The position numbers and the translations under genes were made by a program. Positions 56,319-63,129 of a stretch of DNA of 64,000 nt are shown piece by piece. The stretch is from contig OY969811.1 of NCBI GenBank assembly GCA_963703315.1, positions 2,912,001 through 2,976,000 on the forward strand, read 5' to 3'. Source of the stretch: an uncultured cyanobacterium. Its GTDB lineage: Bacteria; Cyanobacteriota; Cyanobacteriia; Pseudanabaenales; Pseudanabaenaceae. Under the pieces are notes generated by a model, which worked only from the letters and a program-made list of their open reading frames with translations, was not told the DNA's origin and did no database searches. The number at the start of each line of letters is the position of its first letter. The stretch's first letter is position 1.

Positions 56319-56377
56319 CTTACGGTTAAGGAAGGTCTGCATTGCCTACAGACCTTCTTGCCACAAGAGGTTTACTA

Positions 56378-57388
56378 ATGGAAGCCACAATTTTCAGTAT
56401 TGTTTTCGCTCTTTTTAGTGGTACTTATATCTATCGCTCTTTTCGGATTATCGAAGAAGGACAGATTGCCCTAGTTGAGAGATTTGGTAAATATCAAAAA
56501 ACGATGGAACCTGGCATTAATATCGTTTTGCCATTTCTTGATCGCGTTGCCTTAGTGCAAAGCTCCCGCGAACAGGTTTTAGAAATGTCGCCACAGCCCT
56601 GCACGACTTCCGATAGCGTCAGTGTCAGCGTCAGTGGTGTGATGTATTGGCAAGTTACTGATCTCAAACAGGCAAGATATAACATTGAGAATGTCGATAA
56701 ATCGCTGATTGTGTCCCTCGCCACTCAAATTCAAACACAGATTGGACGATGCGATCTCGATAATATTATTGGTGGGCAAGAGCGCATTAACGAAGAGATT
56801 TTGCAGGGTATTTCTAGCGATACTAAAGATTGGGGAATCAGGGTATTGCGCGTGAGATTAGGGGAAATTACAATTCCTACATCGGTGCTGTTATCGATGG
56901 AAAAACAAAAAGCAGCAGAAATTGAGAAGAAAGCGATGATTTCCCTATCTGAGGGTGAAAAGACTTCGGAAATTAAAAAGGCGGAGGCAGTGGCACTTTC
57001 CAATCGGGTTCTCGCTGAATCAGAGCGCCAAGTCCGTTTAGAACAAACTGAGGCGATGGCACTATCGATTGAACGCATTGCCGATGCGATCGCCAATCAT
57101 CCGCATGGACAAGAAGCAGTCCAATATTTATTAGCTCAAAAATATATAGAAATGGGACAAGCGATCGGGCAAAGTCCCAGCAGTAAGGTTTTATTTATGG
57201 ACCCACAGTCCATTCCGGGGGCAATTCAATCGTTACTAGCGATGACTGATAGCAAGATGGCTGAGGCGATCGCTAAGCAACCTTTTGGCGCAAGCAGCAA
57301 TATTCCACCATCATTACGCAATTTACCTGAGATTAAACCTTTTAAACCACCGTCAGCAAATGAGAATATTGATCCAAGCAGTAATTGA
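56378..57388 (+). CDS. SPFH/band 7 (stomatin-like) protein
   Basis: N-terminal TM, VERFGKY..PG, WGIRVLRV and C-terminal AQKYIEMG..IG.S.SSKV. Confidence 0.9.
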   Translation: MEATIFSIVFALFSGTYIYRSFRIIEEGQIALVERFGKYQKTMEPGINIVLPFLDRVALVQSSREQVLEMSPQPCTTSDSVSVSVSGVMYWQVTDLKQARYNIENVDKSLIVSLATQIQTQIGRCDLDNIIGGQERINEEILQGISSDTKDWGIRVLRVRLGEITIPTSVLLSMEKQKAAEIEKKAMISLSEGEKTSEIKKAEAVALSNRVLAESERQVRLEQTEAMALSIERIADAIANHPHGQEAVQYLLAQKYIEMGQAIGQSPSSKVLFMDPQSIPGAIQSLLAMTDSKMAEAIAKQPFGASSNIPPSLRNLPEIKPFKPPSANENIDPSSN

Positions 57389-57746
57389 TGGAAATGACAG
57401 AAATGAGCAAGGATGACAAGCTGAATAAGATTTATAGCTTTGCCAAAATCTTGCTCCTCCATCTGATCAAACAACGCGCCGAAAATCGCACTACGCGATC
57501 ATGGGATCTTTCAATTAAAAATTTAGTGCGAGAAATTCAGCGCACCAACCCATGGAGTAAGGCTAAAGGTAATTATTGCGAACAGAACTACGCGAGGCGA
57601 TAGAAGAGGCTTTTGAGATTGCACTAGATGCTGCTGCGGGTGAGGCTTTTGAGGGCAGATATGAGTCTGATGCGTTGGGTGCAATGGTCGATCGCGATGC
57701 AATTATCAATCAGGCGATCGCTTTAATTTCTGGTAGTAATGTGTGA
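57385..57746 (+). pseudogene. DUF29-like gene, frameshifted and probably 5'-truncated
   Basis: EMSKDDKLNKI..LLLHLIK..TTRSWDLSI continues in another frame as ELREAIEEAF..EAFEGRY..MVDRDAII to TGA at 57744-57746. Confidence 0.7.
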
Positions 57747-57783: not shown

Positions 57784-58414
57784 ATGGAAATTATTACTCA
57801 TCTTATTGTGGCTGCGATCAAGATCATTGTTGATTCTGGGGTATTAGGTAAGATTGGCGATGGTGCAATAGCTAAAGTTGGTGAAAATGCTGTTGATGGT
57901 GTTGGCAACCTGTCTCAGAGATTATGGTCAATGCTAAGTTGATTCTGGGGTATTAGGTAAGATTGGCGATGGTGCAATAGCTAAAGTTGGTGAAAATGCT
58001 GTTGATGGTGTCGGCAACCTGTCTCAGAGATTATGGTCAATGCTAAAGCAGAAAGCTCCTGATACTGATACGGTCAAGAAATTGGGTACAGGAAAAGAGG
58101 TTGATTATCAGCAAGCGGTGATTGATGTAGAGGCGATCGCTGATGATCCTGATGTGGTGAAGTTGTTGGATGAGGTGCGATCGCTACTATCCAGCAACAA
58201 GGAACTAGCAGATAAGGTTGAGGCTTTAGCGGCACAAGTTAAATCTAAAAATATTCAGGTAGCAGCTAAAGACTTTAAGTCGGATGAGTTGGAATTTGGA
58301 GGCAATCAGAAAATATCGTCAACTGAGTCTAAGGCGGTTAATAAACAAACTGGATTTGATAGTGTGAAGATTAAAGGTAAGGCTACGATCAAACTCAATC
58401 AACAAATTAATTAG
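57784..58414 (+). pseudogene. Small helical (Bell/HeLo-like) effector with a C-terminal amyloid-like motif, split by a 109-bp duplication
   Basis: The frame from ATG 57784 stops in the duplication junction; deleting one copy gives a continuous 173-aa ORF. Confidence 0.7.
57829..58046 (+). repeat. 109-bp tandem duplication
   Basis: 57829-57937 and 57938-58046 are identical except GTT/GTC at one Val codon. Confidence 0.95.
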
Positions 58415-58606
58415 GTGATTACTATGCTCGAAGCTCAAGATTTACGACCTTTGCTCAAGGAGTTATTGCGTGAAATGTTTACGCAGGAGCGTGATTTGTT
58501 GGCTGAGTTGATTTATGAGGTTATGGAGGATGTGGCGATTGCTAGGGCGATCGCTGAGGGTAAGGATAGCGAAAATGTTGATCGAGATGAAATCTTAAAT
58601 TTATGA
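58415..58606 (+). CDS. Small antitoxin-like protein
   Basis: 63 aa, acidic, EDVAIARAIAEG..ENVDRDEI; abuts the upstream stop and overlaps the downstream ATG (ATGA). Confidence 0.65.
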   Translation: MITMLEAQDLRPLLKELLREMFTQERDLLAELIYEVMEDVAIARAIAEGKDSENVDRDEILNL

Positions 58607-60933
58607 GCGATAAATATAATCAAACAGGAATTAGCGGTTCTACCTTTGGCGATAACGCTCAAATTGAGATTAAGCAGGAGATTAAAGCATCACGCCAAAA
58701 TCAAGCAATTCCTAGCAATGTACGGCATGGTTCACCCAACTTTGTCGGGCGAGAGGAAGAACTTGCAGAGATTCATACAAAACTGCAAGCGGGTCAGGGT
58801 GTAATCGTCTGTGCGGTGGAGGGGATGGGTGGTGTCGGTAAGACCGAACTTGCTCTGCAATATGCGACTCGCTATCAACAGGAATATGTGGCGCAGTATT
58901 GGTTGTCATTGCGGGAGATGGGATTGGCTCAGGCAGTGGTGACGATCGCTAGTCCTTATCTTGACTTACCCGAATCAATGCGATCGGCTAGTCTAGATCA
59001 ACAAGCAGCATGGTATTGGCAAAACTGGTTGCCTGAGACTGGCAAGCTATTGGTGATTCTCGATGATGTACCGAAGGCGGAGAGCATTCCCAATGTTGCC
59101 ATGCCCATCGATCCGCGTGTGCGGGTATTGGTAACGACGAGAGAACGGGAATTGAATGTGGGTTTTGAGTCTGTGCCTCTGGATGTGTTGTCAGAGGAGA
59201 AAGCACTGGAACTGTTAAGAAAAATAGTTGGCGCGGCAAAGGTAGATAAAGAACTTGTCACTGTCAAAGAGATTTGCAATACTCTGGGTTATTTGCCTTT
59301 GGGCTTAGAGTTAATTGGTGAATATCTGAGCAAAAATCGCTTTCTGACTTTTGCCAAGTTACAAGAAAGGTTAAATCTTGCCGATGAATCAATTGCACGG
59401 GAACGCAAGTATAGGTTTTATGGCGATCGTGGTGTGGAAGCAGCAATCCAACTGAGTTGGGATGACATCAGTGCTGGCTCTCAGAGAGTGGCGATGTTGT
59501 TAGGGCTGTTTGCACCTGTTGAGATTTTGTGGGAGTTGGTGGCTGAGATTGGAGCAAGTGCCGAAATTACGGAAGCAGAACTCAATGAGGCTAGAGGTCA
59601 GTTAGACAGTTTGCATTTGATTCAACCAACTGATGAAGAATGCAACTTTTATAAGATTCATACGCTAGTGCGTGATTTCTTTCGTACCAAGCTATTAAAA
59701 GCTGAAGAGAATCATCAGTTTCGGCAAGCATTTGTAACCAGTTTGCTGGCTATAGCTAAAGAAATACCCCAATCACCAACGCGAGATTTGATTGCAAAGA
59801 TAACTCCAGCTATTCCTCATTTAGATTTGTTGAGTCGCGAAATGCTGAGTGATATTCTCAATCGTGAAGAGGATTTGGTGTGGGCGTTCTTAGGAATTGC
59901 TTTTTACTATAATGGTCAAGGGCTATATGATTTGGCAATTCCACATCTAGAAAACTGCCTCAAATCTACGGAGTCATTATTAGGTGTCACTCATAGAGAT
60001 GTTGCACTTACCATGAGCAACTTAGCCGCAAACTACATAAAAACAAGGCAATATCAAAGGTCAGAGACTCTCCTTCTGCGATGTATAGAGATTTATCAAA
60101 ATACATCAAGAGAAGATGATCCTGAACTAGCACCAGTTTTTAACAACTTAGCCTCACTGCAAAAACAAAAGGGTAATTGGAACAAGGCTTTATATTATTA
60201 TCAAAAGTCTCTTGTACTTATTGAGAAAAAGTGGGGAAATCAGCATATAAAGGTAGCCACTATCTACAACAATGTTGGAGGAGTTTATGAATCGCTATGT
60301 GATTATGAACAAGCTGAGATGTTTTTTGTACTGTCGCTCAAAATAAGGGAAAGTTTTCTGGGTGCAGATCATCCAGATGTAGCACAAAGTCTTTGTAATC
60401 TTGCAGGAATTTACAGATTACAAAATAAACGTATCGAATCAGAAAACCTCTACATCCAATCAATTAAGATAAGAGAAAGTAAGCTAGGAATAGATCATGT
60501 TGATGTTGCTATTACCCTCAATAACCTTGCACTACTTTATTATGATTGGCAGAGATATTCTGAGGCAGAGTTTCTATTAAAAAAATCTCTTTTTATTAGG
60601 GAACGTCAAGTAGGAGCAGACCATCTTGATGTCGCCCAAAGTCTTAACAATCTTGCTTCACTGTACTACTTTCAAAGGAATTATAGCGAAGCCGAACCGC
60701 TCTATCTGCGATCGCTTTCCATTAGGGAACGTCAACTAGGAGAAGACCATCCCGATGTCGTCACTAGTCTCGACAATCTCGCAAGTTTGTACGAGTTGCA
60801 AGGAAGATATGAGGAAGCAGAGCCACTCTATGTAAAAGCATTAGAAATTCTGGAAGTTTCTCTAGGAATGGAACATCCAATTACACAAAAGTGTCGCGAT
60901 AATCTCCAGTCTCTACGCGATCTACAAAACTAA
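58603..60933 (+). CDS. NLR-like STAND protein: short N-terminal motif, NB-ARC, TPRs
   Basis: FVGRE, GMGGVGKT, LVILDDV, LVTTR, GYLPL, HTLV and HPDVA.SL.NLA repeats. Confidence 0.93.
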   Translation: MSDKYNQTGISGSTFGDNAQIEIKQEIKASRQNQAIPSNVRHGSPNFVGREEELAEIHTKLQAGQGVIVCAVEGMGGVGKTELALQYATRYQQEYVAQYWLSLREMGLAQAVVTIASPYLDLPESMRSASLDQQAAWYWQNWLPETGKLLVILDDVPKAESIPNVAMPIDPRVRVLVTTRERELNVGFESVPLDVLSEEKALELLRKIVGAAKVDKELVTVKEICNTLGYLPLGLELIGEYLSKNRFLTFAKLQERLNLADESIARERKYRFYGDRGVEAAIQLSWDDISAGSQRVAMLLGLFAPVEILWELVAEIGASAEITEAELNEARGQLDSLHLIQPTDEECNFYKIHTLVRDFFRTKLLKAEENHQFRQAFVTSLLAIAKEIPQSPTRDLIAKITPAIPHLDLLSREMLSDILNREEDLVWAFLGIAFYYNGQGLYDLAIPHLENCLKSTESLLGVTHRDVALTMSNLAANYIKTRQYQRSETLLLRCIEIYQNTSREDDPELAPVFNNLASLQKQKGNWNKALYYYQKSLVLIEKKWGNQHIKVATIYNNVGGVYESLCDYEQAEMFFVLSLKIRESFLGADHPDVAQSLCNLAGIYRLQNKRIESENLYIQSIKIRESKLGIDHVDVAITLNNLALLYYDWQRYSEAEFLLKKSLFIRERQVGADHLDVAQSLNNLASLYYFQRNYSEAEPLYLRSLSIRERQLGEDHPDVVTSLDNLASLYELQGRYEEAEPLYVKALEILEVSLGMEHPITQKCRDNLQSLRDLQN

Positions 60934-61418
60934 TGAATATGACTCCTAAAAGTATTGTGACTATTTATGACAAACAAGGGCGTGATTACCAAATTGAAGT
61001 TAATGAGCATGAGTCCATTCTTTCGCTTAAAGTTTATCGTTCGTTGGATTGTGTTGGACTAAGGGATATGGTCGGTCATATCGACTGTGTTTTTGAGTAT
61101 CCTAATGAAATGGTTCTAGGAGATATTCACTTTGAAGACAAGATAGACCGTAACCGACTAAAACGCATTTATGCATTTTTTCATCAAGAACCGAAAAACT
61201 ACCGCAGGCTGAGACTAGGAACTGCCACACTAAAATTTCTCATCAAATATATTAAGGAGAAAGGAATCAAAAAGCTTCATGGGTCAATAACTCAACGCGA
61301 TCTTACTGCTAACCCGAATCTAATCAAATGGTATCGAGATAATGGTTTTACAGTAGAAGCTCTAACGGCTCAAGAAATAGACAATAGTGTAGCCAAAATC
61401 TGTCTTTACCTGCTATAA
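60933..61418 (+). CDS. GNAT-like protein coupled to the NLR gene
   Basis: TAATG overlap; NYRRLRLGT and LIKWYRDNGF resemble acetyl-CoA-binding motifs. Confidence 0.7.
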   Translation: MNMTPKSIVTIYDKQGRDYQIEVNEHESILSLKVYRSLDCVGLRDMVGHIDCVFEYPNEMVLGDIHFEDKIDRNRLKRIYAFFHQEPKNYRRLRLGTATLKFLIKYIKEKGIKKLHGSITQRDLTANPNLIKWYRDNGFTVEALTAQEIDNSVAKICLYLL

Positions 61419-61487: not shown

Positions 61488-61898
61488 TTACTGAATCTGT
61501 AAAGTAAATTCTTGTATTTCTCTATTGCTAGCAGAATAATAGCTAACATTACCATCAGCAATCCTCACCACCTTTCCCATCCGCTTTGCTTTTACATTAA
61601 ACTCAGAGTTACGGAAGAGATTTCTGAGTAGAAGAGAGATTTCGGAAGCACGAGAATCTGGCAAATTAAAGCAGACTATACAAAAATATTCACTTATCGC
61701 TACTTTTCGCCAAAAATCCCGCTCATTGATAGTAATAAATGCAGGCTGCGCTTCTTTTCGCAACAACATAGGAATCGCTTCATCTTTAATAATCGAGTTA
61801 GGGCGCAAGTCCGTAATAAAGCAGACATTACCCTGATACCACTTGCCGATCGCCTGTTCTAGATTCGCTCCTAAAAGTTGTTCGTCAAGGACAATCAT
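61488..61898 (-). CDS. PIN-like (DUF5615/VapC45-type) putative toxin
   Basis: MIVLDEQL, IKDEAI and FITINERDF; ATGA-coupled to the upstream DUF433 gene. Confidence 0.7.
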   Translation of the reverse strand: MIVLDEQLLGANLEQAIGKWYQGNVCFITDLRPNSIIKDEAIPMLLRKEAQPAFITINERDFWRKVAISEYFCIVCFNLPDSRASEISLLLRNLFRNSEFNVKAKRMGKVVRIADGNVSYYSASNREIQEFTLQIQ

Positions 61899-62224
61899 GC
61901 TGCACTCAAAATAGGAAGACTCTCAAGAAAATGAGTTGTCACAACTTGAATCGCCTCAGCGATCGCCTCACGCGAAACCCTTCCCCGAAAACCAAGCACA
62001 ATATTTTCAACATTCTCACCCTTAGCTAAGCGCTCCATCACACCCGCAATCTCAATCCGAGTGTACTTAAAAGTTGGGCGATCGCCACAAACTCCCATAG
62101 CCCGAACAACATACTGCCCTAGTGGATAGTAGCTATAGGATTCGCCATTAATTATTTCAGTGACAAGCGATCGCATATAAACTTTTTCATCCAAAGATTT
62201 TAAAACAGTCATCTCCCAAACCAA
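61895..62224 (-). CDS. DUF433 domain putative antitoxin
   Basis: GVCGDRPTFKYTRI...LAKGENVENI...AIAEAI. Confidence 0.8.
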   Translation of the reverse strand: MVWEMTVLKSLDEKVYMRSLVTEIINGESYSYYPLGQYVVRAMGVCGDRPTFKYTRIEIAGVMERLAKGENVENIVLGFRGRVSREAIAEAIQVVTTHFLESLPILSAA

Positions 62225-62338
62225 TAATAAACTTTCTTCTTGTCAATACAAAAGCCATATTTTTGTAATTATATCACGGCAAAATTGCGCCCAATCCAAG
62301 TAGATTTTACGCACATCCATAATTTTTAAAGTAGCCAA

Positions 62339-62378
62339 GCGATCGCGAGTGTATTTTGGTTTTGATTTAGGCGATCGC
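62339..62378 (+). repeat. HIP1-bounded direct repeat, copy 2
   Basis: gcgatcgcgagtgtattttggttttgatttaggcgatcgc. Confidence 0.9.
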
Positions 62379-62389
62379 TAAAATATGTC

Positions 62390-62418
62390 TTGACCACAAG
62401 TAACATATAAGTTACTCT
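62390..62418 (+). promoter_or_regulatory. Probable TA promoter with a palindromic operator
   Basis: TTGACC-N17-TACTCT overlapping AGTAAC-N6-GTTACT. Confidence 0.55.
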
Positions 62419-62428
62419 GGTGTCTAGT

Positions 62429-62800
62429 ATGAAAGTCCAAGAATATATCCAAGAAGATGGCTCAAACCCCTATCAGAAATGGTTCGATAATCTAGATACG
62501 ATCGCTGCGGCAAAAGTGACAGTTGCAAAATCACGTCTAGAGTTAGGCAACACATCAAACATCAAATGGTTTGACGGAATTGGTGAATATCGAATTGATT
62601 GAGGCGCAGGATACCGAATTTACCTAGCCCAAGATGGCAGTCAACTCATAGTTCTATTTGGTGGAGGCACGAAAAAAGGTCAGCAATCCGATATTGAACG
62701 AGCTAAAGAACTACATCAAGAGTATAAAAGACGTAAAAAAGAGGCTAGACAAACAGCCGTAAAAGAAGAAATTGACAAAAAGAAGAAAAAGAAAAAATGA
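62429..62800 (+). pseudogene. RelE/HigB-type addiction-module toxin with an internal TGA
   Basis: ...[18 protein letters not shown]...[17 protein letters not shown]; the frame stays open to TGA at 62798-62800, overlapping the antitoxin ATG. Confidence 0.85.
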
Positions 62801-63129
62801 CAACTATACCCCTAACACGCGACTTTAAAGAAACAGTTAATGCAAGAGTCCAAAGAGATACAGCATTTGCCGCCGCTTTACTTGATGAAGCTATTTCCCT
62901 TTTCCTCAATGGTGAACCAGAAACCGCAAGACTCATATTGAGAGATCTCGTTAATGCCACCATCGGATTTGAAGAACTAGCGATCGCCACCTCAAAACCC
63001 AGTAAAAGCCTTCATAGAATGCTCTCTGCAAAAGGAAATCCCACAATGGATAATCTCACCGCTATTCTCAAAGTTTTGCGTAAAACCCTTCAAGTCGATA
63101 TCAAAGTACAGACTGTTAATTGTGCTTAA
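62797..63129 (+). CDS. HTH addiction-module antitoxin
   Basis: [29 protein letters not shown]. Confidence 0.88.

Follow-up and report, generated by a model that had tools for sequence, protein, structure and literature searches.

Do a small helical protein and the receptor encoded downstream of it in a cyanobacterial contig form an amyloid-signalling pair, of which kind, and can the pair still act? Both genes lie in a 64,000-nt stretch of contig OY969811.1 (GCA_963703315.1), called the window below; coordinates are window positions. The first gene is frameshifted, and the second encodes an intact NOD-like receptor (NLR) with an NB-ARC domain and tetratricopeptide repeats (TPRs). We conclude, with good though not full confidence, that the locus is a Bell/BASS (bacterial amyloid signalling sequence) cell-death module of Pseudanabaena, that it belongs to a subtype related to BASS4, and that it has been inactivated in the source genome. 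Its anatomy, its family, the co-variation of effector tails with NLR heads and its lesions were observed directly.

The effector, the NLR and their motifs

The NLR is an NB-ARC-TPR protein with a short N-terminal stretch, as given in a preliminary description of this DNA; it has 776 aa, its NB-ARC domain covers residues 51–286, and its Walker A/B, GxP and MHD-like motifs are all intact. When one copy of a tandem duplication is removed, the small gene yields a 173-aa frame, as had been reconstructed before, with 144 residues shared with P0001, an intact homologue of 172 aa. The protein has a helical domain of ~100 aa, an acidic residue at position 2 or 3 and a hydrophobic N-terminal helix, all expected of a Bell partner; the best 19-residue Kyte-Doolittle mean of 2.0 bears out the helix proposed earlier. 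The family consensus starts with MEPVS, and the window allele with MEIIT. The Bell gene and the NLR gene are collinear and 188 nt apart, inside the 5 kb within which we sought an NB-ARC/NACHT protein with TPR or WD repeats. The small gene had been placed directly upstream of the NLR gene, which is incorrect, as an open reading frame (ORF) for a 63-aa RelB-like antitoxin separates the two.

The small protein has 147 homologues, and among the 120 listed, every one named to genus or family is from Pseudanabaena or Pseudanabaenaceae; 31 of 71 genomes of the Pseudanabaena family contain a match. The homologues share ~105 helical residues and end in differing tails, which we labelled A, E (a variant of A), B, C and D. 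We compared them with part of the BASS data set of Dyrka et al. (10.1101/2020.01.06.895854; PMC8086366, supplement 1); here and below, comparisons with published work cover parts of the cited sources. Tail D occurs verbatim in class C03, tail B verbatim in C06 and C-like tails in C07, which correspond to BASS3, BASS4 and BASS5 in a mapping made here from class sizes. Furthermore, the NLR of one relative's locus (L032) is entry C07_OYQ63523.1, its two-motif head being filed under a single class. Because its tails and an NLR stand in these classes, we take the family to be the published Bell family, a homology drawn from the tails of relatives and from the neighbouring NLR. The kind of system proposed earlier is thus upheld, with close homologues of both genes in the published set and motif classes that co-vary.

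The A tail consists of two pseudo-repeats, counted from Q to Q: R1, with 18 residues and a mean charge of −5.9, and R2, with 19 residues and a charge of +3. By inspection, the E/D residues of R1 stand in register with the K residues of R2, a register reminiscent of the salt bridges of HET-s. In the AlphaFold model built on a 77-sequence alignment, the tail of P0001 forms two strand sets that match each other (pLDDT 70–79). The preliminary description had recognized the second pseudo-repeat, and had missed the first and its degeneration in the window. It had matched a 22-mer of the tail (58346–58411) to one of the NLR head (58621–58686); these positions and the seven identities stand, and the significance of this pair on its own does not (see below).

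Profiles were compared by hhalign using small proxy alignments of 3–10 sequences in place of the published BASS profiles. R2 of the A tail matches NLR heads of type 'a' (84%), which the window NLR bears, and of type a' (97%), and it also matches R2 of the BASS4 tail B (56%, E 1e-4, 15 columns) and the BASS4 head b (71%); against tails of BASS3, BASS5, BASS7 and BASS9 it scores just 0.1–2.4% (proxy alignments D, C, B7 and B9). The 'a' heads are a type of their own with no match to the BASS4 tail (0.1% against R2 of B), and a' heads bridge the A and BASS4 sides (87%). In addition, the Q-to-Q rung has 19 residues in tail and head alike in all nine A/E pairs, whereas it has 20 in both in all eight B/b pairs; this 20-residue rung is a BASS4 criterion set in the present analysis, not by Dyrka et al. 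The five B-tailed pairs that match only broadly have shorter heads where measurable. On these comparisons, the window tail, with two pseudo-repeats and a 19- instead of a 20-residue rung, is probably a distinct BASS4-related subtype.

In the portion of PMC8086366 supplement 1 that was searched, the A/'a' strings QTGF, NQQI, ELDAEI, ELEAEI, ELDAEV, GKAVI, KATFK and GDNAQI have no match, KATIK occurs solely among the PDB negatives, and for GKAT, QTGI and STFG the places examined (6 of 25, 6 of 13 and 6 of 13) are all unrelated. The subtype was likewise not found in the portion of PMC12261475 covered; the bioRxiv supplements of Dyrka et al. and those of PMC12261475 lay outside this search and may list it. 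The earlier suggestion that the motif may be new therefore holds as to its distinctness, and overstates the case as to a new family, the motif being probably BASS4-related. The subtype extends beyond the genus: divergent Bell domains among 99 representatives bear it, and a hidden Markov model (HMM) of the tail matches 7 of 401 cyanobacterial genomes from three families, some matches being a further variant. One such locus (L113, family f8) is intact and combines an A-like tail on another Bell subfamily with an MNT-HepT pair and an a-like head; its broken equivalent, L124 of the same family, has RelB-ParE.

Co-variation and exchange of tails, spacers and heads

We collected 38 non-redundant Bell/NLR pairs, of which 37 have typed tails. 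The nine A/E tails are paired with heads a (seven), a' (one) and a'+c (one), and the B tails with heads b (eight), b' (four), a'+c (one) and d (one, where a D-tailed Bell lies between). C tails are paired with a'+c (five), c (one) and d (two), and D tails with d (six). Head and tail class match strictly in 29 of the 37 pairs and broadly in 34, a positive outcome for the co-variation check that had been proposed. Specifically, all nine A/E pairs have an a or a' head, against a threshold of at least five non-redundant pairs for a shared motif, and L113 adds to them; the 'a' head stands behind A/E tails in seven of the seven typed pairs that bear it, and also in L113 and L124. The mean score is 44.9 for cognate pairs and 27.1 for other tail types (0 of 20,000 permutations), a contrast inflated by kinship, as relatives are not independent in this permutation test and L042/L045 and L033/L058 are near duplicates. 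Furthermore, an HMM of 14 related NLR heads, picked with knowledge of their likeness to the tail, ranks the window tail first of 8061 ORF C-termini in the genome (E 6.4e-6), and in a genome search the tail is one of its four matches (E 1.2e-4).

Tail type needs 16 changes on the Bell tree, compared with 18.9 when shuffled (36 of 500 shuffles as low), and head type 13 changes on the NB-ARC tree, compared with 15.7 (26 of 500); by this measure each has little signal on its own tree. Different tails are found on Bell domains that are 96% identical, and different heads on NB-ARC domains that are 94% identical.

Toxin-antitoxin or DUF29 genes stand in the spacer at 30 of 37 loci, as assigned by Pfam on representatives and by sequence likeness for the remainder: RelB with or without ParE in 8, MNT-HepT in 5, HicA in 5 and DUF29 in 12, the other 7 having other or no ORFs. 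DUF29 is associated with toxin-antitoxin systems; it is a frequent neighbour of the Bell gene in relatives, with matches in many loci. The spacer tracks motif class, with DUF29 after B, HicA before d, and RelB after A and C, and in the three pairs that mismatch outright the spacer is long and composite (985–1328 nt). At the nine RelB loci (eight pairs and the truncated L043), five of five C tails go with a c-bearing head and four of four A tails with an a or a' motif (P 0.048 if motifs assort at random, relatives not being independent), a hint that selection may keep the match beyond linkage alone. The two genes are 143–1328 nt apart in 37 of 38 pairs, whereas 57% of the collinear pairs of Dyrka et al. 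are separated by ≤10 bp, the published genes being mostly abutting and the motifs repeated on the Bell side. As read from the sequences, tail, spacer genes and head swap together across relatives, a cassette-like exchange, and recombination within the conserved Bell and NB-ARC domains would exchange all three at once.

Joint swapping of tails and heads around toxin-antitoxin or DUF29 genes, together with two-motif NLRs, is not found in print. The words toxin, antitoxin, recombination, modular and swap are absent from the portion of Dyrka et al. (10.1101/2020.01.06.895854) searched, and a literature search that combined amyloid signaling motif with toxin-antitoxin, NLR and bacteria returned no paper. 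Two-motif heads have a fungal precedent, because one such configuration is mentioned for Tuber NLRs (PMC9815663); branched amyloid pathways are predicted only (PMC7889193). Tentatively, and with more doubt than conviction, the Bell/NLR loci might be viewed as a natural combinatorial library, in which tail, toxin-antitoxin spacer and head form a specificity cassette with shared spacers as recombination hinges, specificity is set partly by rung length (19 or 20) and R1/R2 charge, and a'+c NLRs act as branched adaptors that fire an A-type or a BASS5-type effector.

Several results weigh against reading the locus as a Bell/BASS module. By themselves, the window tail and head are not above chance (50-residue tail against 45-residue head, local score 31, shuffle p 0.11), and they are 32% identical, compared with 43–56% in published validated pairs. 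Of 8061 ORF C-termini, the 8 that score best with an HMM of nine 'a' heads do not include the window tail, which the HMM of mixed heads alone recovers; the 'a' HMM gives a mean of 5.3 bits on 35 A/E tails and 2.5 on D tails. Three of the 37 pairs mismatch outright and five match broadly only. An independent-pair test on the Bell tree gives 4.3 of 6 in the expected direction and none opposite (p 0.125, not significant), such tests being under-powered (the first tree lost 12 of 37 rows, and the second is without L045, L058 and L038). As tail and head are physically linked, their co-variation may partly be hitch-hiking. An NLR lies within 2.5 kb of 37 of the 55 distinct Bell tails in loci. Thirteen of the remaining 18 have less than 1.5 kb of sequence downstream, L002 is counted among these 18 with its NLR further along the genome, and the rest have none. 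Four Bell loci with more than 3 kb downstream have no NLR. Finally, scans of the helical domain against Pfam, PADLOC and PDB sequences did not identify it.

The miss by the 'a'-only HMM could also mean that the 'a' head has drifted and templates the A tail no more, linkage alone holding the pair and a' being the true cognate type; A tails indeed score 68 with a' heads and 35 with 'a' heads. Drift is nevertheless unlikely, given that 'a' is conserved in nine distinct versions, has the 19-residue rung of A in seven of seven cases, and is found downstream of A-like tails whether the spacer is unannotated or holds RelB, RelB-ParE or MNT-HepT, with examples from two or more NB-ARC clades and from another family as well.

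Other arrangements occur among relatives. In loci L118 and L119 (genome G036), a Bell of another subfamily bears one more BASS4-like tail variant and is followed by DUF29 or HicBA and by b'-type heads; the b' heads found behind B tails probably have their true cognate in this variant. L035 is a tandem array of a Bell with a BASS4 tail, DUF29, a Bell with a BASS3 tail, HicA and an NLR with a BASS3-type head. In the 453-aa protein P0142, a transmembrane segment and a long C-terminal part without annotation are fused to a Bell-like N-terminal domain; as a candidate Bell-NLR fusion the protein was rejected, longer fused forms lying outside the search.

Proposed mechanism and known systems

By analogy with HET-S/NWD2 and Bab/Agp, intact Bell/BASS modules of this family would form amyloid, kill the cell and serve in defence. 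A ligand bound by the TPRs would lead the NB-ARC domain to oligomerise, and the clustered NLR heads would stack into a β-solenoid seed. The seed would then template the two-repeat tail, acidic R1 upon basic R2, and tail conversion would free the hydrophobic helix 1, so that the membrane is damaged and the infected cell dies.

The motifs might instead pair as a finite β-sheet or solenoid adaptor that is no self-propagating amyloid, or the effector might be no pore former, possibilities to which we give very little weight. They draw on polymerisation being argued here by analogy and on the helical domain, which has no fold match above noise. Specifically, the AlphaFold model of P0001 (pLDDT 69, pTM 0.49, helix 1 of low confidence) has a best structural Z of 5.6, a Babybell-like four-helix cup having been examined, and fold searches with two models returned generic helical matches only (best Z 6.5 and 5.6), the tail being barely probed. 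Foldseek gave no match at E 0.001, ZAR1 (6j5t) at Z 5.1 does not rise above noise, and prediction of the tail-head complex scored 0.02. However, BASS1 and BASS3 pairs show prion behaviour and cross-seeding, in work where, in the portion covered, BASS4 is not among the motifs tested, and Bab/Agp kills through BASS11 (10.1101/2024.11.07.622273). A lead to PF20701 HetE-N from the Atlas (18% of one cluster, rank 23) was dropped, as this family is not among the 25 listed for 77 members.

The putative amyloid-signalling module resembles the BASS4 pairs of Dyrka et al. in its ~105-residue helical domain with a hydrophobic first helix and acidic position 2, in a motif repeated on the Bell side and single on the NB-ARC-TPR protein, in collinear genes, in its occurrence in filamentous cyanobacteria and in a sister tail, B, that is BASS4 verbatim. 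Beyond its rung and head, it differs in strings absent from the set searched and in the window copy being broken. HET-s is the closest grammatical match of BASS4 (PMC8086366). Bab/Agp likewise has a Bell-related effector with a C-terminal amyloid motif and a 'MEPIS'-type N-terminus, which the MEPVS start resembles, and a sensor with an N-terminal motif; that sensor, however, is TPR-GreA/B-PIN, not NB-ARC, its Babybell domain is shorter, and defence is demonstrated for Bab/Agp, whereas the window family is known here from sequences. HET-S/NWD2 and HELLF/FNT1 (HRAM; PMC7889193) share the layout of a paired pseudo-repeat in the effector and a single one in the NLR, with a β-solenoid-like prediction, whereas their repeats have 21 residues, compared with 18 and 19 here, and the HeLo domain is theirs; we claim likeness of layout and no sequence homology.

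Because systems of this type are already described and antiphage activity is proven for one of them, the broken copy in the window matters little alone. In its family, five or more motif classes are joined to effector and sensor bodies that are themselves nearly identical, in matched, mismatched and two-motif combinations, and the family is thus a panel for what sets cross-seeding barriers and whether amyloid pathways branch. It also adds a bacterial motif of two HET-s-like rungs, which would suit structural studies.

State of the window copy and its surroundings

In the source genome the effector gene is not intact, as a 109-nt tandem duplication shifts its frame; the copies are identical at 108 of 109 positions, and the single difference is synonymous. 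R1 of the window contains four residues absent from all 24 relatives, its charge is −2, compared with the family mean of −5.9, and it has 6–9 amino-acid changes per 18 codons, compared with 2.3 among relatives; R2 of the window has one. The ParE toxin is missing, likewise in L085 and L099, and ParE/RelE is present in L041 (PF05016) and, by sequence, in L019, L020, L032 and L060. With its duplication, degenerate R1 and ParE loss, the window copy is probably dead, and looks like a decaying defence cassette with its killer arm lost. The A-type tail of the window is the one such tail in the source genome, and since no whole effector can be produced, the intact NLR is left there without a complete cognate partner. 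The DUF29 gene is split at a site where other contigs have 4 additional bases (57582). Gene conversion from the NLR head as the origin of R1 was rejected, as the register differs. Other Bell genes are broken or truncated in relatives (L016, L038, L095, L115 and L124), which suggests that effector loss is common among them.

The duplication could also be a reversible switch, or could leave a decoy, in that a 124-aa product without helix 1, keeping the tail, would soak up seeds like non-toxic HET-s. Its internal ATG (58040) is in frame, the near identity of the copies implies a recent event, and two other NLRs in the genome have a'-like heads. Nevertheless, no clear ribosome-binding site precedes 58040, no microhomology was seen at the duplication flanks, and the split DUF29 gene, toxin loss and R1 degeneration indicate decay, which leaves a switch or decoy quite improbable. 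Least probable of all is an assembly error in an intact module, as might be thought from a contig of a close relative in run X2 and the other homologues listed, which have no duplication: in run X1, possibly the source sample, contigs contain the repeat loop, the 109-nt piece has a depth of 15.3 against 9–10 in its flanks, as in a tandem-repeat loop, a 60-nt junction piece has 30 bases per side, one short of the bridging rule, and the two copies differ at one base.

The features of the inactivated Bell/BASS module are listed in Table 1. A promoter and terminator scan gave nothing above shuffles.

Table 1. Features of the Bell/NLR locus in window coordinates
Feature	Position	Strand	Remarks
DUF29 gene, split over two frames	57385..57746 (57385-57603 + 57576-57746)	+	PF01724 match
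Bell-type effector gene, frameshifted	57784..58414	+	147 homologues
N-terminal ORF of effector gene, 52 aa	57784-57942	+	
ORF of effector gene from internal ATG, 124 aa	58040-58414	+	
Hydrophobic N-terminal helix, predicted membrane-targeting	57790..57846	+	hydropathy, alignment, AlphaFold helix 4-16 in P0001
Tandem duplication, 109 nt	57829..58046 (57829-57937, 57938-58046)	+	
Pseudo-repeat R1, 18 residues Q to Q	58256..58309	+	acidic in family, degenerate in window allele
Pseudo-repeat R2, 19 residues Q to Q, and C-terminus	58346..58411	+	basic, conserved; BASS4-related subtype 'A'
RelB-like antitoxin, 63 aa, without ParE/RelE toxin; overlaps NLR start	58415..58606	+	PF25734, E 1e-12
NLR, 776 aa: short head, NB-ARC (about 58753-59460), TPR repeats	58603..60933	+	frame intact
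NLR-side motif, head type 'a', 19 residues Q to Q	58621..58686	+	

Elsewhere in the source genome, a second cassette (G000:C1:1060382-1066726, −; L002/L010) comprises an orphan BASS4 tail fragment, DUF29, an intact Bell with a BASS5-type tail, HicB-HicA-HicB and an opposite-strand transposase-like gene, which we take to be IS630-like, and ends in an NLR with a two-motif head. A third NLR with a two-motif head (L008; G000:C1:38839-41229, +) has upstream a 166-aa ORF with no Bell match. A third, divergent Bell with a BASS5-like tail (G000:C1:4288134-4288562, −) abuts a NACHT-like ORF without a matching head.

Within the window, a gene for an SPFH/Band 7 protein (56342-57388, +) lies immediately upstream of the cassette. 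A GNAT-like ORF (60933-61418, +; weak PF00583, E 0.0025) overlaps the NLR stop with its start. Further toxin-antitoxin-like genes follow downstream (61488-63129), with DUF433 and a small partner ORF, and another small gene pair lies at 62420-63129.

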